Below, piece by piece: positions 12,020-64,000 of a stretch of DNA of 64,000 bases. Below the pieces are notes generated by a model. It saw nothing but the letters and a program-made list of their open reading frames with translations. It was not told the origin of the DNA and ran no database searches. Source of the stretch: an uncultured delta proteobacterium (GTDB taxonomy: Bacteria; Myxococcota_A; Polyangia; Polyangiales; Polyangiaceae). Every line of letters starts with the position of its first letter. Position 1 is the first letter of the stretch. A program made the position numbers and the translations under genes. The DNA lies in contig CAVQUB010000004.1 in the NCBI GenBank assembly GCA_963716725.1, positions 96,001 through 160,000 of the forward strand, read 5' to 3'.

Positions 12020-13405
12020 ATGCGCCGACTGAAGGTTCTCGTGCTCGCGGGCGCGGCGCTGTGGTCCTTGGCCGCGCACGCAGATCCTGAGAAGCCTCCT
12101 CCCCGGATGAGCGCTGCGGTGACCGCTCGGGCGCCCGTCTACACGCTCCGGCGCTGCCTGGAGCTGGCCGCGCGGAACTACCCGAAGGTCGCCGAAGCCA
12201 AGGCGCGCCTGCGACACAAAGAGGCGCAGCTGTCCCAGGCGCACACCGCGCCATTCAGCGAATGGAACCTGACCGCTGGGGTCGGTCCGGCGCCCACTGT
12301 TCGCGGCACCAGTATTTACAGCCCGAACACCGACGCGGCGCTGACGTCCAACATGGCGCTGGCCTGGCAGGTGGGCATCGACGGTGTGGTGCCGCTCTGG
12401 ACCTTCGGCAAGATCACCAACCTGTGGGACGCAGCCGAGGCCCAGATCAAGGTCGGCGAGCACGAGGTCAAGCGAGAGAAGAACGACGTCAAGATGTCGG
12501 TGCGTCGGGCCTTCTACGGGGCGCAGCTTGCGCGCGACTCGCTGGCGCTGGTGCGCGAAGCCACGCAGCGGATCGACAAACACCTGGGGCGACTCGAGGC
12601 CCGGGTGGCCGACGGCGACGGCGACGACATCGAGCTGCTGAAGCTGAAGATGTATCGCGCCGAGCTCGAGGCTCGGGAGAGCGAAGCGGCGAAACAAGAG
12701 CGGATCGCCCTGGCCGGACTGAAGTTTCTGATCGGAGCGCCCTCGGCCGTCGAAATCCCCGACCAACCGCTGCGACGCGTGCCGCACCGGCTGGCGCCCC
12801 TCGGTCGCTATCTGGAGGCAGCTCGCCTGTTTCGACCCGAGGTCAACATGGCGCGGGCCGGGGTGATGGCGCGCCAGGCCCAGGTCCGGCTGGAGCAGTC
12901 GCGCTACTTCCCGGATTTCGGTCTGGCCCTCAGCGGGCGCTACGGCCGGGCGCCCGAGGTGACCAATCAGATCAACCCCTGGGTCAACGACAGCGCCAAT
13001 CGCTTTCACTACGGCGCGGCGCTGGCGCTGAAGTGGAAGCTCGACTTTCTCCCGCAGAGCGCCCGGGTGGCCCAGGCGCAGGCGCAGCTCGAGGAGATCC
13101 GCGCCACGGAGCGCTACGCGCTCGGAGGCGTCGGGACCGAGGTGGAGCAGGCCTTTGCCGAGGCCGTCGACGCGGCCACACGCGTTGACGCCTACACCCG
13201 CGCGCAGGGCTACGCACGCCAGTGGCTGATCAAGGTGCAGCAGGGCATCGACGTGGGCACCTTCGAAGACGAGGACGTCGTCTCGCCGGCGAAGGAGTAC
13301 GCGCTCAAGCGCTTCGCGCAGATGAGCGCGGTCTACGAGTACAACATCGCCATCGCCCGGCTCTCGCAGGCGACGGGCTGGGACTCCATCGCACCGGTGG
13401 ACTGA
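12020..13405 (+). CDS. TolC-family outer membrane protein
   Basis: Signal peptide; two OEP-like repeats (TLRRCLELAARNYP, RPEVNMARAGV, YFPDFGL, YNIAIARLSQATG). Confidence 0.85.
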   Translation: MRRLKVLVLAGAALWSLAAHADPEKPPPRMSAAVTARAPVYTLRRCLELAARNYPKVAEAKARLRHKEAQLSQAHTAPFSEWNLTAGVGPAPTVRGTSIYSPNTDAALTSNMALAWQVGIDGVVPLWTFGKITNLWDAAEAQIKVGEHEVKREKNDVKMSVRRAFYGAQLARDSLALVREATQRIDKHLGRLEARVADGDGDDIELLKLKMYRAELEARESEAAKQERIALAGLKFLIGAPSAVEIPDQPLRRVPHRLAPLGRYLEAARLFRPEVNMARAGVMARQAQVRLEQSRYFPDFGLALSGRYGRAPEVTNQINPWVNDSANRFHYGAALALKWKLDFLPQSARVAQAQAQLEEIRATERYALGGVGTEVEQAFAEAVDAATRVDAYTRAQGYARQWLIKVQQGIDVGTFEDEDVVSPAKEYALKRFAQMSAVYEYNIAIARLSQATGWDSIAPVD

Positions 13406-13730
13406 GAGGCTCGGCTCGGGCGTGGGCGTGGGCTCAGGGCCTGTGAAAGAATCCCCAGCGACCACGAGGGAAGGAGCACCGGCAGCGCTTCGGAGTCGCC
13501 GGCATGGGGGCGAGGCGCAACCCCAGCACGATTCGCCGAGAGACGCTGGGTCGGGTTTGTGCGGCGCCGCGAGCAGCAGCGTCGCGGACTAGGCGCGAGC
13601 GCTTCCGACCTGGACGCATTCCCGCACGGCGCTCTGCCGCGCTCGAAGGCGAAACGGCCACCCACTGCGCTGCCGCTGACAAGGACCTGGGGGGGCGTCC
13701 CATGCACGACCCTTGGAAGTCCCTGGCGAG

Positions 13731-15213
13731 CTCACGATCAGTCACATCTTTTGATCCGGTTTCGTCCCCCCGTGCGTCCGGAGAGCATGGCAAGAGCGAA
13801 GGCGAAGGTGCGAGTGTCTGTGGCAATGGAGTTCGAGGGGGCTGAGCTTGGGGATCGGCGGCTGAACGCCCGACTGGAGCGGATCGCGCGAGCAGCGGAC
13901 GCGAACCCGCGCGATACCTTTCCCGACATGATGGGCTCTGGGGCAGAACTCGAAGGTTTCTACCGCTTTGTCCGGAACGAAAAGGTGAGCTTCGACGAGG
14001 TGCTCCGGCCGCACGTCAGCGCCACAGTGCGTCGGGTTGCGGAGCACGGCGAAGTGATCGTGATCCACGACACGACGGAGTTTCGGTTCTTGGGCGACAA
14101 GCGCCAGGGGCTCGGCAGGGTCGGCATGGTAGGCCAAGGGTTCATGGGGCACTTCTCGCTCGCGGTCGTCCATGGCGAGGAGAGAGAGCCGCTCGGTGTG
14201 CTTGCGGTCGAGCCGTGGACGCGGCGCGGCGATTCCGTATCGAAGCGTGAGAAGGATGGGCGGACCACCGGCAAGGAAGCCAGAACAGCGCCTGAGCGGG
14301 AATCGCTGCGCTGGGCCAGAGGGATTTCCGCTGCAGAAGACGTCGTGGCCCAGCGAGCTGCCTTGATCCACGTGATGGACAGCGAGGCCGATGACTATGC
14401 GCTCTTGACGCAACTGATCGGGGATGACCGTCGGTTCGTGGTTCGCATGGCCCGTGATCGCGCAATCACGGATGCCGAGGGGAAGGTCAGGGCAGCTGGA
14501 GCGTCAGCGGCGATGGTCGCTGCACGAAGTGTCGCGCTTTCACGCCGTAAACCTCCCATAGGCCCGAAGGACCGACGCAGGCTGGCGCGTGCAGAGCGGC
14601 TCGCCACTCTGACGGTCGGCGCACGACAGCTATCGATCACCCGCCCCTCGTAGGCGGGCAGCAAGTTTTCGAAGAGCCTGCCAGGTCAACGTCATCTACG
14701 TGAACGAAGTCGACGTCCCAAAAGGCACCGAACCGGTCGAGTGGATCCTGTTCACCACGGAGCCCGTCAAAACGAAGAAGCAGATCCTCCGCGTCGTTGA
14801 CATCTACCGGTCGCGTTGGTTGATCGAGGAGTATTTCAAGGCGCTCAAGACCGGCTGCGACCTTGAGAAGCGCCAACTCGAGAGCTGCAGCACGCTCCTG
14901 GTGGCGCTCGGTGTTTTCGTGCCGATCGCGTGGGGTCTGCTCCGTTTGCGCGCGCTCTCCAGAACGGCGCCCGACACCCCGGCAACTCGAGTCCTCACTC
15001 CAACGCAACTCGACCTGCTCCGGCGGCACCCCAAGGCAAAGATGTCTTCGACAGCGACCGTGCGCGAAGCGCTGCTCGCAGTCGCCCGCCTCGGTGGCCA
15101 CCTGCGCAGCAACGGAGACCCTGGCTGGATCGTCCTCGGGCGCGGATACCATCACCTGTTGCTGCTGGAGATCGGCTTCCGGCTGGGCCAGGAAAGATGC
15201 GATCAATCGTGAG
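13731..15213 (+). mobile_element. IS4-family (IS50/Tn5-like) insertion sequence, 1483 bp
   Basis: 19-bp imperfect terminal IRs CTCACGATCAGTCACATCT (13731-13749) and AGATGCGATCAATCGTGAG (15195-15213); 8-bp direct repeat CTGGCGAG at 13723-13730 and 15214-15221. Confidence 0.93.
13787..15212 (+). pseudogene. IS4-family transposase, interrupted (in-frame TAG at 14651 and frameshift ~14682)
   Basis: EFEGAELGDRRLNARL, YRFVRN, IHDTTE, ESLRW, HVMDSEAD; second part EWILFTTEPV, YRSRWLIEEYFKALKTGC (YREK motif), LGGHL...PGW. Confidence 0.9.
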
Positions 15214-15465
15214 CTGGCGAGGGACGCCCCTTGGTGGGCTTGGTGGGGGGCGTGCAAGCACCGTCCCCGCGCTCGGCGTCACGAGAGAAAGCGCACCGCA
15301 TCCCCATTTTCTTCTTGACGCATTTCCAGGCGACTCGCGCTCGCACTTTGCCGGGCGTGTCACCGAAGGCGTCTCTGTTGCGCGACGAAGCTCGCCCATC
15401 GTGTTTCGCTCGAGCGACGACGCGCGACGCGTTTGGACGCGTGAAACGCGCTCACCGTGTCGGCC

Positions 15466-15503
15466 GCGAGGCCAAAAAACAGCGTGTTATGCCAGAAAGC
15501 ATG
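15466..15503 (+). promoter_or_regulatory. Conserved motif immediately upstream of HNH gene (putative extended -10 TGnTATGC)
   Basis: GCGAGGCCAAAAAACAGCGTGTTATGCCAGAAAGCATG aligns with GCGAGGCCGAAAATCCTCGTGGTATGCCGGAGACATG at 62364-62400; promoter function is inferred. Confidence 0.45.
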
Positions 15504-16784
15504 CACGCTCTCTCTTCGGTCTCCGATCGCGAGCTTCGCGAGCGCCTCTCCTCCGCCGTGAGCGCCGAGCAGCTGGCTTCTGCCGACGTCATCTTCCACC
15601 TGGCGGAGCTCGACCGCCGAAAGCTCTACCTCGAGGACGCCTGCTCCTCACTCTTCGCGTACTGCGTGGAGCGGCTCGGCTACTCCGAGGACGGCGCGAG
15701 CAAGCGAGTCCGTGTCGCCCGCTTGGTTCTGCGTTTTCCCCAGGCCCTCGACGAGCTCGCGAGCGGCGCCATCCACCTGACCGGACTGTTCCTGCTCTCC
15801 GGGCACCTCACGGAAGACAACGCCGATCGACTCATCGCCGAGGCTCGCGGCAAGTCGAAGCGGCAGCTCGAGGAGCTGCTCGCTCGGTGGGCGCCCCGGT
15901 CCGACGTACCGGCGACCATCACCCCGAGCGGGCCCGAGCCAGCTCGAGCGGAGTTATCAACAATGTCCGGGACAGGTGGCTCCGAGCTGTCGGCGCCGCC
16001 GCCATCGGCGCACCGTCCTCGTGTCGAGCCGCTCTCGGCCACGAGCTTCCGCGTGGAATTCACCGCCAGTGCCACGCTCCGCGACAAGCTCGAACACGCC
16101 CGGAACCTCCTCAGCCACGCCGTGCCGAGCGGGGATCTCGCGACCCTGATCGAGCGAGCCATCGATCAGCTCATCGCCGTGGAGACGAAGCGCCGCGCGG
16201 GCGCGGGCCAGCCACGCAAGCGCCGTGAACCTCGCGCCGGCTCGCGCCACGTGCCGGTGGAGGTCCAGCGCGCGGTGCGGGAGCGGGATGGCAACCAGTG
16301 CACCTTCGTCGATGCCGAGGGACGCCGCTGCTCCGAGAATAGACCGTCCGGCCGGGCCGGAGGAGCGCCGTCCGCTGATGCGAACAGTCGCAAGGAGCCA
16401 TCTCGAGTCAGGACGCTGAACACGAGTGGTTTCCTGACCATCGAGCACGTCGACCCGTACGCGATGGGAGGACCAACGACAGTGGATAACTGCTGCTTGC
16501 TTTGTTCGGCTCACAACGCCCACCGGGCGCGACAGGTCTACGGCGAGCAGCACGTCCGGAAGAAGGTCTCGGAGGCTCGCGCGGGCCGGGAAGCGCGCGG
16601 TGTGTCTGCGGGGACTGCGGCCGAGCTGAAGAGCGAAGTGTTCGAGAAGGTGCTGGCGGCTCTGCTTCACTCGGGGTTCAAGCGGCACGAGGCGCGGCGA
16701 GCCCTCGAACAGGTGCGCTCGCTCGGAGTCGAGCCGCAGCTCGAGCCAGTGCTGCGCGGAGCGCTGGCGGTACTCACTCCCTGA
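15501..16784 (+). CDS. DUF222-like/HNH endonuclease with C-terminal RuvA domain III-like tail (427 aa)
   Basis: VPVEVQRAVRERDGNQCTFV...RC...TIEHVDPYAMGGPTTVDNCCLLCSAHN is an HNH/Zn motif; tail VLAALLHSGFKRHEARRAL...VLRGALAVL resembles the RuvA C-terminus; start chosen by alignment to the paralog at 62398. Confidence 0.85.
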   Translation: MHALSSVSDRELRERLSSAVSAEQLASADVIFHLAELDRRKLYLEDACSSLFAYCVERLGYSEDGASKRVRVARLVLRFPQALDELASGAIHLTGLFLLSGHLTEDNADRLIAEARGKSKRQLEELLARWAPRSDVPATITPSGPEPARAELSTMSGTGGSELSAPPPSAHRPRVEPLSATSFRVEFTASATLRDKLEHARNLLSHAVPSGDLATLIERAIDQLIAVETKRRAGAGQPRKRREPRAGSRHVPVEVQRAVRERDGNQCTFVDAEGRRCSENRPSGRAGGAPSADANSRKEPSRVRTLNTSGFLTIEHVDPYAMGGPTTVDNCCLLCSAHNAHRARQVYGEQHVRKKVSEARAGREARGVSAGTAAELKSEVFEKVLAALLHSGFKRHEARRALEQVRSLGVEPQLEPVLRGALAVLTP

Positions 16785-18256
16785 GACGGTTCGTGCACAC
16801 CCCCGACAAAGGGGGGGTGCACGGGATGCCGCTTTTGGTCTTGGTAGCGGCAGCGCCGCGGGCACGGGACGCGGCGCCCGACTTCGACAGGCCCATCGTG
16901 AGCAACTCGGCTGGGGGCGCATCGATCTGGAGGCGCAGGTACCTCACGACCACCCCGTGCGTGCCATCGCCGCGGTGATCGACCGCCTGGACCTCTCGAA
17001 GCTCTACGCTCGCATCGGCGCACACGACTCGAACCCCGGCGCGCCGGCCATCGACCCCAAGCTCTTGCTCGGCCTGTGGGTGTACGCCACCAGCGACGGC
17101 GAGAACAGCGCTCGGGAGATCCAGCGCCTGACCGAGTTGCACGCCGCCTGTCGGTGGCTGTGCGGCGGGGTGAGGCTCAACCACCACACGCTCAGCGACT
17201 TTCGCAGCCACAACGCCGAGGTGTTCGACGACCTGGTCACGCAGGTGCTGGCCTTGCCCATGAGCCACGACCTGGTGGACCTCATGCGTGTCGCGCAGGA
17301 CGGCACGCGCGTACGGGCCAGTGCTGGGGCGAGTTCTTTCGCAAGGGCACCACGCTGGAGGCTCTGCGCCAGGAGGCTCTTCTCCCATCTGGCCGCGGTC
17401 ACGGCAGACACCGAGAGCAGCTCACGCCGAGCCGCGGCGCAGAAGCGTGCAGCCCAGGATCGCCTCGACCGGCTCGACGCGGCGCTCGCGCAGTTGCCCG
17501 GGGCCGCGAAGACCAAAAGCAAGAGCGGCGCCAAGGACCCGACCCCTCGAGTGTCGACGACCAATCCGCAGGCACGGGTGATGAAAATGGGCGACGGAGG
17601 ATTCCGGCCCGCCCACAACGTGCAGCTCGCCACGACCGCCGACGACGCGCGGGTCATCGTCGGTGTCGCCGGCACCCACCGCGGCAGCGACATGGCCGAA
17701 TCGACTCCGATGCTCGAGCAGATCGAGAAGCGGACTGGCGTCCGGCCACGAGAGCTCCTCGTCGATGGGGGATACGCGAAGCATGAAGCCATCGACGAAG
17801 CAGCCGCGCGCAACGTCACCGTCTACGCTCCGCTGCCCAAGCCCCGCAACGACGACGGCTCTGACCCTCATCGGCCGAGGGATACCGACAGCTCAGCCGT
17901 TGCCGCCTGGAGACACCGCATGGCCACCGACGAGGCCAAGCAGATCTACCGGCAACGGGCCGCGACCGCCGAGTCCGTCCACGCGGACGCCAAAACGCAC
18001 CGCGGGCTCGACTCGCTGACCCTGCGGGGACGGGGCAAGGCTCTCGCCAGCGTGACGCTCTTCGCGCTCACGTACGACATCCTGCGCGCCATCACGCTCG
18101 GCGTCTGACCCCTCCACCGCTCCGCCGCGGCCCCGTTTTCCGCGCTCGGCCCACCTGAATCGCGTCGCGCTCCACGCGCTCCCGCCCTGCGCCTGGGACT
18201 CGCCCTCGCTCGATCCCCCGGCGGCGCATGCTCAACCGATTTCTTCTCACCCGCTC
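16783..18256 (+). mobile_element. IS1182-family insertion sequence
   Basis: Contains an IS1182-type transposase; ends GAGACGGTTCGTGCAC... and ...TTCTTCTCACCCGCTC are weak IRs with homologs at 13437/15267 and 61930/62159. Confidence 0.75.
16826..18108 (+). pseudogene. IS1182-family transposase, probably degenerate (5' frameshift ~16835, compensating pair ~17338-17382)
   Basis: VPHDHPVRAI, GAPAIDPKLLLGLWVYA, WLCGGVRLNHHTLSDFR, AQDGTRVRASA, STTNPQARVMK...FRPAHNVQ, LVDGGY, IYRQRAATAE. Confidence 0.85.
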
Positions 18257-20093
18257 AGGCCGGGACGGGTCGCCCGCGCGTCTCGTGATCGTCCAGGCGC
18301 TTCTCGATGCCCGCCAAGCCGTTGTTGAGCGACTCGGTGATCATCTGCACCAGCGTCGGCAGGCTGCTCTTGAGCGCCTCGTAGTAGCGCTGGCGCTCGG
18401 TTGAATGGATGATCGCGGGCGGGTGGCCGGCGCGCAGCAAGATGATGTTCATCAGCATGCGCGAGACCTTGCCGCTGTCGTTGGAGAAGGGGAAGACGCG
18501 CACCAGATCGTAGTGGACGCGGGCGGCGATCCGCAGCGGATGCTTGATCTTCTTGGGTTCGGGCCCGTTCAACCAATCGACCACCTGACGGACCTTGTAG
18601 GCGATCTTGTCGGGCGAAGCGTACTCGTGGAAGTACAGGCGGTGCTGCGGGATGTCCTTCCGGTAACGCAGGTTCTTGATGTCACCCTCTTCTGGGTGCA
18701 GCGTCAGGTAGATCTTCTTCACCGTGTCGACGGTGATGGGCGCACGCTTCTTCTCGCCCAGGTCGCGCACGAGCGCGAGCGCCAGCCGGTGCCGCCGGAT
18801 TTCGTCGACCACGGGCTGAAGGCTCGAGTCGGGCACCACGGTCTGTGAAGGATCGGTGGCCGTTCGGAGCTCTTGGTAGGTGTAGACCACGCCCTCGAGC
18901 GCGCTGTCGTGATAGACCCACGACATCTCGAGGCTCTCGGCGTACTCGTTGCGGAAGGCGTCGTCGCACTCCGCCAGGCGCTTCAGAACCAGAGCGTAGC
19001 GGTCCTCCATGGAGGCGGGCGGCGGCTCTTTCGGCGGCGGCGGCGGCGACACGACCGCTGCCGTGGGAGAGGTTCGAGCGAGCGCGGGTCGCGCCGACTG
19101 TGAGCCTTGGCGCGTCGTGCCTGCTTGGTTCGGGATCGCGTCTGGACGATAGACTCGGGTCGTCGACGCCCGCCCGGCGCCTGCTCGAAGCGCGCGCTTG
19201 GTGGCCCGTGCCACCCGTCCCTCGAGGGCGCGTCGGGCGGCTTCGCGGTCCGCCCGGAGGCGCTCCCGCTCGACCTCTTTGGCCTTGCGATAAACTTCGC
19301 GCTCCGCGTCGCGTCGCGCCCGCTCTTCATCTTTGGCGCGCCGCGCCTCTTCCCGGACGCGCTCGCGCTCGGCCTCGCGCTCCGCGCGCTCGGCCTCCTT
19401 CAGGTCGCGCGCGGCTTCCTTCACGCGCTCGCGCTCGGCCTCCCGCGCCTTGCGCTCGGCGTCGCGCTTGGCTGCCAGGGCCTTCTGCTCGCGAGCACGC
19501 TCTTTCTCGCGCTCTTTCCGCTCGCGTTCGCGCTCTTTCTGTTCGCGTTCGCGCTCTTTCTCGCGCTCACGCTTCTCGCGTTCGCGCTCCTTCTGCGCGA
19601 GCGCGCGCTCTTTCTCGCGCTCACGCTTCTCGCGTTCGCGCTCGCGGAGCGCGTTGGCCCGCTCGCGCTCTTTTTCGCGCAGCGCTCTCGCTCGGTCTTG
19701 CTCGCGCTGCCGCTTCGACGGCGGCGGGCGCTTCCCGGCCTTGGCCTTGGGCTTCAGCGTGGCCTTGGCCTTGGGCTTCAGCGTGGCCTTGGCCTTGGGC
19801 TTCGAAATAGCCTTGGGCTTGGGCTTGGGCTTCGAAATAGCCTTGGCTTTGGCTTTGGCTTTGGCCTTGGCCTTCGGCGTGGCTTTGGGCTTCGGCGTGG
19901 CTTTGGGCTTGGCCTTCGGGCGGGTCGTGGGCTTCACTTTGGATTTGGGCTTCGGCTTCGCCGTGGCCTTGGCCTTGGCCTTCGGCCGCGAGGCCGAAGG
20001 TCGCGCCTTGGCCGCCGCGCCCGCCTTCTTTTTTGTAGCGGGGCGGGGTTTCGCAGCGGACTTGTTTGGTTTTTTCGTTGTACGGGCCGGCAT
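18255..20093 (-). CDS. Fic-domain protein with histone-H1-like Lys/Ala/Pro N-terminus and charged coiled coil
   Basis: C-terminal YHDSALEG, YRKDIP, AARVHYDLVRVFPFSNDSGKVSRMLMNIILLRAGHPP, RYYEAL; N-terminal KPKAKA repeats. Confidence 0.85.
   Translation of the reverse strand: MPARTTKKPNKSAAKPRPATKKKAGAAAKARPSASRPKAKAKATAKPKPKSKVKPTTRPKAKPKATPKPKATPKAKAKAKAKAKAISKPKPKPKAISKPKAKATLKPKAKATLKPKAKAGKRPPPSKRQREQDRARALREKERERANALREREREKREREKERALAQKEREREKREREKEREREQKERERERKEREKERAREQKALAAKRDAERKAREAERERVKEAARDLKEAERAEREAERERVREEARRAKDEERARRDAEREVYRKAKEVERERLRADREAARRALEGRVARATKRALRAGAGRASTTRVYRPDAIPNQAGTTRQGSQSARPALARTSPTAAVVSPPPPPKEPPPASMEDRYALVLKRLAECDDAFRNEYAESLEMSWVYHDSALEGVVYTYQELRTATDPSQTVVPDSSLQPVVDEIRRHRLALALVRDLGEKKRAPITVDTVKKIYLTLHPEEGDIKNLRYRKDIPQHRLYFHEYASPDKIAYKVRQVVDWLNGPEPKKIKHPLRIAARVHYDLVRVFPFSNDSGKVSRMLMNIILLRAGHPPAIIHSTERQRYYEALKSSLPTLVQMITESLNNGLAGIEKRLDDHETRGRPVPA
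19736..19985 (-). repeat. Coding low-complexity tandem repeats (KPKAKATL, KPKATP, KAKA)
   Basis: Repeated GGCCTTGGCCTTGGGCTTCAGCGT and GCTTCGGCGTGGCTTTGG units. Confidence 0.85.
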
Positions 20094-20214
20094 CGCCGAA
20101 GCCTCGGCCGCGGGCCGATCGCAGTCGCACACCGCGGAAAAAGTCGGGCTTCACGCTAGTCGCGGCGCACGCAATTCGTCAACAGCCTTCGTTTGGCCGA
20201 GGCACCGGAATCGA

Positions 20215-60532: not shown

Positions 60533-60755
60533 ACCACGAGCTTGCCGCCGATCCACCACGAGCTTGCCGCCGATCCACCACGAGCTTGCCGCCGATCCAC
60601 CACGAGCTTGCCGCCGATCCACCACGAGCCTGCCGCCGATCCACCACGAGCTTGCCGCCGATCCACCATGAGCTTGCCCGCCGATCCACCACGAGCTTGC
60701 CCGCCGATCCACCACGAGCTTGCCCGCCGATCCACCATGAGCTTGCCGCCGATCC
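60533..60755 (+). repeat. Tandem array: 10 copies of 22/23-bp unit ACCACGAGCTTGCCGCCGATCC
   Basis: Six 22-bp units, three 23-bp units, one final 22-bp unit; no spacers. Confidence 0.95.
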
Positions 60756-61291: not shown

Positions 61292-61376
61292 CCGCCGAGC
61301 GGGCAACCGCCGAACGGGCAACCGCCGAGCGGGCAACGGCCGAGCGGGCAACCCCCGAGCGGGCAACCCCCGAGCG
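61292..61376 (+). repeat. Tandem array: about 5.7 copies of 15-bp unit CCGCCGAGCGGGCAA
   Basis: Units at 61292, 61307, 61322, 61337, 61352, partial at 61367. Confidence 0.92.
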
Positions 61377-61625: not shown

Positions 61626-61926
61626 GACGACCCTTGGAAGTCCCTGGCGAGGGACGACCCTTGGAAGTCCCTGGCGAGGGACGACCCTTGGAAGTCCCTG
61701 GCGAGGGACGACCCTTGGAAGTCCCTGGCGAGGGACGACCCTTGGAAGTCCCTGGCGAGGGGCGACCCTTGGAAGTCCCTGGCGAGGGACGACCCTTGGA
61801 AGTCCCTGGCGAGGGGCGACCCTTGGAAGTCCCTGGCGAGGGACGACCCTTGGAAGTCCCTGGCGAGGGGCGACCCTTGGACGACCCCGGGAAGTACCCG
61901 GAGGGGCAAGTCCCCGACGGGGGACA
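61626..61926. repeat. Tandem array: 9 full 27-bp palindromic units GACGACCCTTGGAAGTCCCTGGCGAGG plus partial and degenerate copies
   Basis: Units every 27 bp from 61626 to 61868 (A/G variant at position 2); degenerate tail to 61926; internal hairpin GTCCCT-GGCG-AGGGAC. Confidence 0.96.
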
Positions 61927-61929
61927 CTC

Positions 61930-62159
61930 GAAGGGGTGAAACGAGCGCTCTCTACTTCGAGGTCCGGCCCTGCGCGCCCGCGGCCCGGCGCGGAGCATCG
62001 CGGAAGCCGCGCCTGCGCGTGATGTCGACGAGCGCAGGCAGGAACCGGAAACCTTCGCTTCACGTGCGCGCTGCCACACCCGCGACGCTGCCGCTGCCAA
62101 GCCCACCAACGGCAATCCGTGCACGACCCGTTTGTCAGGGGGTGTGCAAGCACCGTGGT
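61930..62159 (-). mobile_element. MITE-like internally deleted IS1182 derivative (~230 bp)
   Basis: Reverse complement ACGGTGCTTGCACACCCCCTGACAAACGGGTCGTGCACGGATTGCCGTTGGTGGGCTTGGCAGCGGCAGCGTCGCGGG aligns over ~75 bp with 16786-16862. Confidence 0.7.
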
Positions 62160-62363
62160 TCTGGCGCACGCTTCAGCCGGCTGCGAATCGAAAAGAACGC
62201 ATCTCGTACGATTTCGACACGTTTCTCGACGCACGACGCACGCGAGTGACGCGTCGTTCGAAACTTGCCGCGTGCGAGCGCGAGGACGATCCACGACGGC
62301 GCTCTGGCTCCCGGATGACTTTCGACGCGTCGAGCTGCGCGTTCGTTGCTCTCGGTGGCAGCT

Positions 62364-62400
62364 GCGAGGCCGAAAATCCTCGTGGTATGCCGGAGACATG
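62364..62400 (+). promoter_or_regulatory. Second copy of the conserved motif upstream of the HNH-family gene
   Basis: Aligns with 15466-15503. Confidence 0.45.
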
Positions 62401-62808
62401 TTCGCGCTCGACGCTCTCGAGAACCAGGCTCTCCTCGCGCGTTTGCCCAGCCTTCGGGCTCTCGAACGCGAAGCCACCGCCGAGCTCATCGCGTACCTCT
62501 GCGAGCTCGACCGCCGCCGCTTGTACACAGCGGTGGCTTGCTCGTCGCTCTCCTCGTATTGCACCGAGCGGCTCGGCTACTCCGAGAACGAGGCCCAGGT
62601 GCGGGTCGGGGTCGCTCGACTTTGCCAGCGTCTGCCCCAGGCCCTCGACGAGCTCCGGAGCGGGCGAATCCACCTGACCGGCCTGTTCCTCCTGTCGGGG
62701 CGGCTGACCTCGGAGAACGCCGATGCCCTGCTCGCCGAAGCTCGGGGCAAGTCTCGGCGTGACCTCGAGTGTTTGCTGGCCCGCTGGTTCCACCCCTTCG
62801 GCTCATGA
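62398..62808 (+). pseudogene. 5' fragment (~131 codons) of a DUF222-like/HNH nuclease paralog
   Basis: ELDRRRLY..ACSSL..YCTERLGYSE..VARL..PQALDEL.SG.IHLTGLFLLSG.LT..NAD.L.AEARGKS..LLARW matches the protein at 15501; similarity stops at ~62790, and the stop codon lies inside the IS4 IR. Confidence 0.88.
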
Positions 62809-64000
62809 TCAAACACATCTCATTGCGAGCGGACGGCGCGTGTGATCTACGGGAGAAATGCCGGCAACAGAATGGTTAGGGCGGTCGATTTCGGACGAGT
62901 TCGAGGGCTCTCAGCTCGGCGATAAGCGGCGCAGTGACAGGCTCGGTTGGCTCGCTGAGAAACTGATGGCGGCGCCCGGTGTTGGGTTTCCGCAGGCTGT
63001 CGACACTCCGTCCGAGCTTGAGGGAGTCTACCGATTCCTGCGCAACGAGCAGTTCGACGCGGAGCAGATCCTCGACCCGCACCTGTCGGCGACGGTGGAG
63101 CGTGTGAGTTCCGCTGGCCTGTGTATCGTCGCGCACGATACGACCGAAGTATCGCTCGGCGGCGCCAGTCGGCGAGCTGGGTTGGGCGTCACGTCCGGCG
63201 GCAGCCAGGGGTTTCTCGCACACGTGGCGCTGGCCGTGCTTCCCGGCGAGGAGCGAGTGCCACTCGGAGTTCTGGGTCTACAGCGACACGTCCGCCTCGT
63301 ACACAAGGGTGGACGCGGGCGCCGCCGGTCTGTCAGTCGGAGAGACCCCGAGCGCGAATCACTGCGCTGGCCGGCCATGCTCGAGGCCGTCCATGCACGC
63401 TGCCCCGGCAGCGCGCTCATTCACGTGATGGACCGCGAAGCGGACATTTTCGAGGTCCTGGCGAAGGCGCAGGAACTCGGTGCGCGCTACGTCATCCGTT
63501 CGGCTCACGACCGAGTAACTGAGGAAATAGGCATCTGCTTGCGCAGTGCAATCTCAACGCTCGAACCGCAGTTTTTTCGCACGATCTCGGTGTCATCGAG
63601 GAAACCGAGCAGTCGCGCGCATGCTGCAAAAGAGCACCCGTCTCGCAACGCCCGGAGCGCGGAGGTCGCCGTGGCAGGCAAACGTTTGACTGTGCTGCGC
63701 CCCCGCAACACTCGACATGAGACGCGCAGCATCGAACTCAACGTGGTTCGAGTCTGGGAACTCCAACCACCAGAAGGCGAGCCGTCGGTCGAGTGGGTGC
63801 TGCTCACTACCGAACCCATTGACACCGTCGCCGAACTCGCGACCGTCGTGGACTGTTACCGCAGTCGGTGGGTGATCGAAGAGTTCTTCAAGGCACTCAA
63901 GCAAGGGTGTTCTCTCGAGAAACGACAGCTCGAGTCGTATCAGGCACTGAGCAACGCGCTCGCCGTGTTCCTGCCCATCGCCTGGCGCCTGTTGCTCATG
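62802..64000 (+). mobile_element. IS4-family (IS50-like) insertion sequence, right end outside window
   Basis: Left IR CTCATGATCAAACACATCT (62802-62820) is 16/19 identical to the IR at 13731. Confidence 0.88.
62858..64000 (+). CDS. IS4-family transposase (open to window end; absent from ORF track because no stop codon)
   Basis: MPATEWLGRSISDEFEGSQLGDKRR, YRFLRN, AHDTTE, ESLRW, HVMDREAD, EWVLLTTEP, YRSRWVIEEFFKALK; GGGAGA RBS. Confidence 0.9.
   Translation, partial: MPATEWLGRSISDEFEGSQLGDKRRSDRLGWLAEKLMAAPGVGFPQAVDTPSELEGVYRFLRNEQFDAEQILDPHLSATVERVSSAGLCIVAHDTTEVSLGGASRRAGLGVTSGGSQGFLAHVALAVLPGEERVPLGVLGLQRHVRLVHKGGRGRRRSVSRRDPERESLRWPAMLEAVHARCPGSALIHVMDREADIFEVLAKAQELGARYVIRSAHDRVTEEIGICLRSAISTLEPQFFRTISVSSRKPSSRAHAAKEHPSRNARSAEVAVAGKRLTVLRPRNTRHETRSIELNVVRVWELQPPEGEPSVEWVLLTTEPIDTVAELATVVDCYRSRWVIEEFFKALKQGCSLEKRQLESYQALSNALAVFLPIAWRLLLM

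Follow-up and report, generated by a model that had tools for sequence, protein, structure and literature searches.

On contig CAVQUB010000004.1 of an uncultured member of the Polyangiaceae (assembly GCA_963716725.1), a gene for an HNH nuclease lies next to a transposase gene of the IS1182 family, in a block that separates a tolC-like gene from a fic gene. Which parts of this block move, and whether the nuclease is a component of the mobile element or something carried by it, is the question raised by this locus. The block lies within the stretch of 64,000 nucleotides analysed here (positions 96,001 to 160,000 of the contig), which we call the window and to which coordinates refer unless a contig is named. 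A preliminary description, made from the letters alone, had interpreted the block as an HNH gene bracketed by two head-to-head IS1182-type elements. Our results favor a different view, in which it is one crippled copy of an IS1182-family insertion sequence (IS) of approximately 3.3 kb, with a self-contained HNH cassette between its left repeat and its transposase gene; we put the probability of this reading at about 0.6. Below, C-numbers denote copies or contigs of the source genome, G-numbers other genomes (G004 and G064 are congeners), L-numbers the HNH loci that were compared and X-numbers public sequencing runs.

The block was inserted as one piece at CTCAG

The block is flanked on both sides by CTCAG, and the first 25 bases inside this duplication are identical at 13 of 25 positions between the two outer ends, as compared to 6.9 ± 2.2 for random 25-mers. 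Only 0.6% of the element's random 25-mers reach 13/25 (p about 0.006), which identifies the ends as an imperfect terminal inverted repeat. The likeness of the outer ends had been seen in the preliminary description, which also pointed to relatives as a place to look for empty sites. In all six congeners that were searched the tolC-fic site was empty, the two genes lying 40-150 bp apart without the element, and the uninterrupted site of G004 reads GTGGGCTCAGGCGCCG, with a single CTCAG. These results show that the block was inserted as one piece at CTCAG, duplicating this sequence. Open reading frame (ORF) and family scans gave the gene order tolC-like gene, IS4-family transposase in two frames, HNH gene, IS1182-family transposase and fic. 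The parts of the block and the two genes beside it are:

13438-18253, whole insertion, flanked by the 5-bp CTCAG duplication
13433-13437, left target-site copy, CTCAG, present also at the far side of the element
13438-13462, plus strand, left terminal inverted repeat, GGCCTGTGAAAGAATCCCC..., an end shared by the other copies
13438-13657, plus strand, left non-coding region, 91-95% identical to the other copies
13658-13722, plus strand, left arm, outer half, as far as the hairpin loop, an inverted match to 16785-16862
13708-13730, ending at 15222-15225, plus strand, single 27-bp tandem-repeat unit (GACCCTTGGAAGTCCCTGGCGAGGGAC), split by the IS4 element
13731-15213, plus strand, nested IS4-family insertion sequence (1,483 bp), transposase in two reading frames
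15222-15267, plus strand, inner half of the left arm, ending ...GGGGGGCGTGCAAGCACCGTCC; its reverse complement aligns to 16785-16811
15268-15500, plus strand, conserved leader (233 bp), with TTGACG at 15315-15320 and TGTTATGCC at 15485-15493, 7 nt before the ATG
15501-16784, plus strand, HNH nuclease gene (stop codon 16782-16784), 427 aa in three domains
16338-16430, plus strand, lineage-specific in-frame insertion (93 nt, 32 aa) within the HNH motif loop
16785-16862, plus strand, right arm, with the hairpin GTGCACACCCCC-GACAAA-GGGGGGGTGCAC at 16793-16822
16864-16869, plus strand, site of a 52-bp deletion that holds the transposase ATG in C3, C33, C2, C5 and C6
16870-18108, plus strand, IS1182-family DDE transposase gene, startless (first in-frame ATG, GTG or TTG at 16957; frame open from 16630)
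18229-18253, minus strand, right terminal inverted repeat, reverse complement CGGGTGAGAAGAAATCGG...
18254-18258, right target-site copy, CTCAG, in which TCA is the fic stop codon on the minus strand
12020-13405, plus strand, tolC-like outer-membrane gene, from the ORF and family scans
18255-20132, minus strand, fic gene, from the same scans

The coordinates of the preliminary description were right to within 1-3 bp, its placement of a leader and the HNH gene between the arms was borne out, and so was its nesting of an IS4 element. The ends of the latter are inverted (CTCACGAT...), and it is flanked by an 8-bp duplication, CTGGCGAG (13723-13730 and 15214-15221), BLAST placing the boundaries at 13730 and 15214. 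It matches the Pfam domains Tnp_DNA_bind and DDE_Tnp_1 and the NCBIfam IS4 models.

Eight copies of the unit are present in the genome

When 12500-19000 was compared with the genome by BLAST, 13433-13730 plus 15214-18258 recurred as one contiguous unit. The unit is found at eight loci (the window and C5, C3, C2, C33, C21, C6 and C13), whose flanks are unrelated and whose ends are the same. CTCAG is present on both sides in five of the eight copies and four of its five bases in two more, while the left end is deleted in one. In short-read contigs from two public metagenomes, the depth was about 31 in the core and 3.4-4.6 in the unique flanks, a ratio that fits 7-9 copies per genome. The stretch is also contained, at 67-84% of sampled words, in 16 DNA runs from 8 studies. 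A recurrent, mobile, IS1182-associated nuclease element had been suspected from the window alone, and the eight copies, CTCAG, the empty sites and the second lineage described below substantiate it.

The HNH gene is full length in seven of the eight copies, and an intact 421-aa transposase with an ATG start is found in three (C3, C33 and C6). The window copy is defective, the 52-bp deletion having taken out the transposase start; run X2 carries 52 extra letters at 16864-16869. C21 likewise lacks the 52 bp and is interrupted as well, C2 and C5 are frameshifted, and C13 is truncated.

Three further rearrangements were observed among the copies. A 152-bp duplicate of the left end (C6:47240-47391) directly precedes the full C6 copy. 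At C13:57876-63984, about 3.2 kb is inserted in the HNH gene and the 5' half of the transposase gene is replaced, a joint (16812>17416) that was found in two DNA runs. About 640 bp is inserted in the transposase gene at C21:53709-54343.

The backbone belongs to the IS1182 family

The window transposase scored 289 bits against NF033551 (cut-off 270), a threshold exceeded at five loci of the source genome, and contains the Pfam domains DUF772, DDE_Tnp_1_6 and DDE_Tnp_1. Other features shared with the family are terminal repeats that are short and imperfect, a CTNAG-like target with a short duplication, and the presence of several near-identical copies. In G061, a stand-alone IS1182-like element of 1,692 bp with CTAG flanks reads CTAG|GGGCCTGACC at its end, which is related to CTCAG|GGCCTGTG here.

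IS1182 members are usually described as 1.3-1.9 kb long and as having a single gene. The unit described here, without the nested IS4 element, is about 3.3 kb long and departs from that one-gene organisation in having two genes. Its order is terminal repeat, approximately 220 bp of non-coding DNA, an arm with the 27-bp repeat, the 233-bp leader, the HNH gene, the inverted arm and the transposase gene. The difference from other members lies in about 2 kb before the transposase, with a second gene, for the nuclease, that has a candidate promoter of its own, a hairpin repeat and a variable tandem repeat. From this anatomy, the DDE transposase would act on the outer ends and move everything between them, and copies with an intact transposase could mobilise defective ones such as the window copy.

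A second lineage has the same order of parts

Arm, leader and HNH gene had been reported to recur near the right end of the window, and we found them at 62079-62800. The features of this second window locus are:

61626-61881, plus strand, 27-bp repeat array, 9.5 units
62079-62156, minus strand, arm homologous (inverted) to 16785-16862, with 82% identity by BLAST
62161-62808, plus strand, leader (to 62397, approximately 237 bp) and 5' portion of a diverged HNH gene, with 63% aa identity across residues 1-130

The locus belongs to a second lineage of five loci (C6, C15 twice, C11 and the window at 61.6-64 kb) that are about 90-94% alike. As compared to the first lineage, their HNH proteins are about 54% identical and their transposases 41-47% (in the transposase tree, the row for L131, which is degenerate or in the wrong frame and has a long branch, was disregarded). 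The ends, GATCTGTCGAAAAATGAGG with CTGAA-like flanks, are unlike those of the first family. The order of left end, repeat, arm, leader, HNH gene and transposase is the same. All transposases of this lineage are truncated, and two copies, the one in the window (W2) and C11, stop about 140 bp after the HNH stop codon without a transposase; these short forms diverge from the long forms at +93 after the HNH stop and then share approximately 50 bp. A second-lineage transposase is 76% identical to one in G007.

From about 62809 on, the HNH gene of the second window locus is interrupted by an IS4-like element that continues beyond the window. Two related IS4-family elements, with ends CTCACGATCAGTCACATC and CTCATGATCAAACACATC, lie inside the two HNH elements, at 13731-15213 and at 62809-64000, the former having landed in the tandem repeat and the latter in the HNH reading frame. 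The transposase of the first is split between frames around 14654-14700.

Arms, hairpin and 27-bp repeat

Directly 3' of the HNH stop codon lies GACGGTTCGTGCACACCCCC-GACAAA-GGGGGGGTGCAC..., and an inverted copy of approximately 80 bp sits left of the leader. We scored the match between the arms by local alignment against shuffled sequence. It reached z = 4.5 in the window copy, where only 27 nt to the right of the IS4 element are aligned, z = 10.7 over 47 nt in the clean C3 copy, and z = 24.8 over 78 nt when 62079-62156 of the second window locus was compared with 16785-16862. Copies without the IS4 element show the left arm continuous, and its inner part is also present in L003, L004, L036 and the second window locus. 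The hairpin loop of the left arm is occupied by the 27-bp repeat, each unit of which is foldable (GTCCCT-GGCG-AGGGAC). The units number 2 in C3 and C6, 4 in C2, 5 in C33, 6 in C21, 7 in C5, one in the window copy and 9.5 at the second window locus.

The 27-bp unit is identical in both diverged element families, in which its number ranges from 1 to 9.5. Seven solo units occur outside arrays, at C5:179738, C8:412583, C13:130395, C13:142740, C23:18813, C4:160932 and C4:161505.

The arms bear on the composite transposon of the preliminary description, in which the HNH gene was caught between an inverted, internally deleted IS1182 (left) and a complete one (right), the pair now moving through its outer, 3'-type ends. 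The left piece does resemble the right terminal repeat at its outer end and the start of the transposase segment over its inner 80 bp or so. In addition, 16780-16792 (CTGAGACGGTTCG) agrees in 10 of 13 bases with the right end and its adjoining target (CTGAGAGGGTGAG), and the W2/C11 short forms and the long forms of the second lineage part at one point, 93 bp past the HNH stop. However, the left piece matches the transposase segment solely at the approximately 80-bp arms and the approximately 20-bp terminal repeat. The remainder of the left end (about 220-228 bp in all, 228 bp between outer end and arm) is unrelated to that segment on either strand (z = -0.5 and -0.2). Similarity of the outer ends does not discriminate, because every IS has similar left and right ends. 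Furthermore, CCCTGA at 16779-16784 represents the conserved HNH C terminus (LTP-stop) with its stop codon and occurs in relatives that lack arms, so that much of the IS-end likeness at 16783 comes from the HNH gene. No stand-alone copy of the right-hand unit (16785-18253) was found in the source genome, the arm pair of the second lineage is not significant (z = 1.5), and arms in G061 flank HNH genes with no transposase between them. We therefore regard a composite origin as unlikely. What stands of the earlier comparison is the match of arms and terminal repeats; the left piece is not a second IS1182, and the head-to-head bracketing is not supported. By BLAST, the left non-coding region (13438-13657) showed no conservation with the G064 relatives.

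The HNH cassette has a conserved leader and a three-part protein

The motifs of the leader are kept in 23 of 23 aligned leaders from five genome-specific expansions. Across clades, a leader of about 185-205 bp is conserved that starts with GATTTnTGTTGACG and ends with GAAAAT-N5-CGTGnTAT-N9/10-ATG. It is this conservation by itself that suggests a leaderless promoter (TGnTAT 7 nt before the ATG), because a strict sigma-70 scan of 15200-17000 returned no site. The RNA libraries X17 and X18 have contigs that overlap portions of the leader, the HNH gene and the transposase gene; these contigs demonstrate neither transcription nor a start site.

The HNH protein matches the Pfam families HNH (21.4 bits) and RuvA_C (20.7 bits), the HNH match being present in all 15 aligned members (best E 2e-6), with C267, C277, H316, N330, C335, H338 and N339 invariant. 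An AlphaFold model (mean pLDDT 68) has three confident parts. The first, residues 22-132, is similar in structure to the ParB/KorB DNA-binding domain (Z 6.4-7.0), the second, residues 248-351, to an HNH domain from a phage (Z 6.0) and the third, residues 377-427, to RuvA domain III (Z 8.2, with an rmsd of 1.5 Å across 50 residues and 28% identity), the last in agreement with the sequence matches. RuvA domain III is the part of RuvA that binds RuvB. A Foldseek search against the PDB gave nothing at E 0.001 or better. DUF222 (PF02720) was matched in only one of the 15 members, at an E of 0.032; in a protein atlas, 13 of 30 matches were in sets with DUF222, and 42% of the members carry DUF222 in the cluster shown. 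The link of the N-terminal part to the DUF222/13E12-repeat domain is only a lead.

The 32-aa insertion, which is modelled at a pLDDT under 50, is found in all eight copies, but none of the 14 aligned relatives and none of the G064 copies has it; the residues for metal binding and catalysis are retained. In X17, an estuary RNA library, a contig 98% similar to the gene was observed that lacks the 93 nt. It is an allele and not a splice product, because its junction letters differ from the DNA here.

The preliminary description had loosely likened the arrangement to IS200/IS605 elements that carry IscB or TnpB, which also have a nuclease gene beside the transposase and a conserved non-coding stretch upstream of it. 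That analogy was not supported. The HNH protein has no RuvC domain by Pfam or NCBIfam, and the IscB model reached 17.5 bits against a cut-off of 175, matching the HNH motif only. The Rfam scan of 13300-18400 gave one sub-threshold match (17 bits against 50). RNAalifold found no consensus pairs in the 23 leaders, and the structures of the separate groups disagree. The folding energy of 76 leaders, as compared to dinucleotide shuffles, had a mean z of 0.04 for the plus strand and of -0.27 for the minus strand. With no RuvC domain, no Rfam family and no leader structure or excess folding energy, nothing speaks for an RNA-guided, IscB-like mechanism; IS200/IS605 elements also differ in having an HUH transposase.

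A role as a defence-system gene was rejected as well, PADLOC giving no more than a 15-bit match to a type IV restriction model.

The cassette in other genomes

Among 8,000 candidates scored, 406 HNH relatives at E ≤ 0.001 were found in Myxococcales/Polyangiaceae metagenome genomes, and tblastn of the HNH protein against 72,556 plasmids gave no match at 1e-10. The paralogues group by genome in the tree, and selection on them is purifying, with a median dN/dS of 0.19-0.29 across five sets (94 pairs). No transposase of the same kind lies within 5 kb in 75 of 78 HNH loci from other genomes; the remaining three, all from one genome, hold remnants of this transposase. G062 and G065, which are rich in HNH copies, have no IS1182-family match. 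In the congener G064, relatives of the first family have the same left end, arms and deleted transposases at a dS of about 0.55. Judged by these comparisons, the HNH cassette is a multicopy, selected module in Polyangiaceae, usually found without a transposase. How often an inverted IS1182 end lies approximately 235 bp upstream had been raised as a check in the preliminary description; at 8 of 63 testable loci, as in the window, the distance from the end of an inverted repeat to the ATG is 227-260 bp.

In the G062 expansion (L011 4419-4508 and others), an approximately 90-bp HNH fragment lies 500-600 bp upstream of several full copies. These fragments suggest cassettes landing beside or within older cassettes.

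About 13 HNH copies in G061 lie inside inverted arms of 260-320 bp without a transposase between them, and about 12 solo arms are also present. Such units (2.2 kb) are what would be expected if the arms served as terminal inverted repeats for an HNH element of its own, non-autonomous, that once transposed into the 5' region of an IS1182. The position of the left arm end in those 8 of 63 loci fits this idea, as does the finding that a single clade of 22 rows (SH-aLRT 97) contains every arm-flanked and every IS-linked copy. However, no duplication was seen in the sequence at the outer arm edges, the G061 arms cannot be aligned with either the arms here or the IS1182 ends of G061 itself (z under 1), and none of the 41 arm matches in G061 reveals an empty arm-arm site. 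No enzyme is known for such a transposition, and we consider this nested transposon very unlikely, the least probable of the alternatives weighed here.

Mosaic copies and the spread of the cassette

Over 15358-16809, the window copy differs from the majority type, represented by C3, by 4 substitutions; in the left part, in the arms and in the transposase gene, the difference amounts to 3-10% of sites. Independent short-read contigs break at 15358, with one core type and two backbone types, so that the mosaic is not a polishing artefact. A low-divergence core within diverged flanks points to exchange of the cassette between diverged backbones. C5 is also recombinant, with a breakpoint near 17300.

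We interpret the leader and HNH gene, bracketed by the approximately 80-bp hairpin arms, as a putative selfish nuclease gene of the DUF222/13E12 kind that is lodged in IS1182 backbones. It would spread by two routes, riding the IS and being copied between IS copies by recombination. The second route may start from a cut made by the HNH protein itself, with the tail resembling RuvA domain III recruiting RuvB as help. The cassette would be dispensable for IS1182 transposition as such. The element is one that either took in, or evolved with, a DUF222-like HNH cassette.

Another reading, which we regard as possible but doubtful, makes the HNH protein an active mobility enzyme and not cargo. Its DUF222-like domain, nuclease and RuvB-recruiting tail would together copy the cassette between landing pads (hairpin arms, IS1182 5' regions and long inverted repeats) via break-induced, branch-migration-assisted gene conversion. 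Conversion triggered by the nuclease is not demonstrated, because there is one tract, the C5 breakpoint lies elsewhere and the HNH region of the second lineage is more diverged than its ends.

These same points count against the passenger reading itself: the low-divergence tract is a single case, C5 shows ordinary recombination elsewhere, and the second-lineage cassette has diverged further than the ends around it. The empty sigma-70 scan is a further difficulty. Another objection concerns linkage. The source genome has 19 IS1182-family matches at 11 loci, and at every one of these loci (11/11) an HNH gene in the same orientation immediately precedes the match; the loci span two lineages that are only 41-47% identical. 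This is more than a casual passenger predicts. Such constant linkage could mean a functional partnership.

In a two-enzyme transposon of this sort, the HNH protein would be an integral accessory, either cutting the strand that the DDE enzyme leaves, as TnsA does in Tn7, or preparing target or donor. Besides the linkage, the architecture kept in G064 at that dS and the better preservation of the HNH gene (intact in 7/8 copies vs 3/8 for the transposase) fit this proposal. Yet 75 of the 78 HNH loci elsewhere lack the transposase, and whole expansions are found in genomes without an IS1182 match. Conversely, IS1182-like elements lacking HNH are active elsewhere: the G061 element has seven equal-scoring matches, and the five compared in DNA are 100% identical. 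G007, too, has the 76%-identical transposase, and one HNH query found no homologue there; this absence rests on fragments, the genome being 80% complete in 1,500 contigs, and so lends the passenger reading less than it seems to. On balance, a selfish passenger spread by recombination is favoured over an obligatory co-factor, the latter being improbable in our estimation.

Relation to known systems

No IS1182 element carrying an HNH gene was found described in the literature searched, ISfinder lying outside that search. The IS is unusual in that two IS1182 lineages carry a conserved, selected nuclease with a tail resembling RuvA domain III and that this nuclease accompanies all the IS1182 loci in the genome.

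The REP13E12/13E12-repeat (DUF222-HNH) genes of Mycobacterium tuberculosis offer one parallel, as they are multicopy, encode a helical N-terminal domain followed by HNH and are substrates of recombination. DUF222-HNH (13E12) repeats are abundant in Actinobacteria and shape genome structure; the present results show that HNH repeats are abundant in Polyangiaceae. We know of no account of how the 13E12/DUF222-HNH repeats multiply. The genes studied here differ in belonging to another phylum, in the RuvA-domain-III tail, in being embedded in a DDE transposon or long inverted repeats, and in the weakness of the DUF222 match. In one report, 13E12 repeats are described as inversion hotspots and as induced by DNA damage and the SOS response (PMC13157036), and another lists them among repeats near insertion sequences (PMC10589994).

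Free-standing homing endonuclease genes (phage HNH, GIY-YIG seg/mob) are similar in being nuclease genes with a promoter of their own (here a candidate one) that multiply without a transposase, and the one low-divergence tract here is centred on the gene. In contrast to those genes, the HNH gene has no known cognate target, its copies are at unrelated sites and it lies inside a DDE transposon. Tn7-type elements (TnsA with the DDE enzyme TnsB) also encode a DDE enzyme next to a separate nuclease. TnsA has a restriction-enzyme fold, not an HNH fold. The system here further differs in that close DDE relatives occur without the nuclease.

With its recent copies, empty sites, intact and defective transposases, variable hairpin repeat and low-divergence tract, the system makes the spread of such repeats testable, and the arms, the 27-bp repeat and the leader motifs provide signatures for finding such cassettes elsewhere. 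If the HNH protein were indeed a mobility enzyme, the element would have two tiers, a nuclease of the homing type lodged within a DDE transposon and working together with it, and would provide the first mechanism for the spread of 13E12/DUF222-HNH repeats.

Other repeats in the window

Two tandem arrays lie left of the second window locus, one of a 22-bp unit (10 units, 96% matches) at 60533-60755 and one of a 15-bp unit (5.7 units) at 61292-61376, the latter adjoining the truncated left end of the second-locus element. In the fic gene, the half encoding the N terminus (minus strand, 19357-19987) is made up of tandem repeats nested in one another, with periods ranging from 6 to 54 nt.

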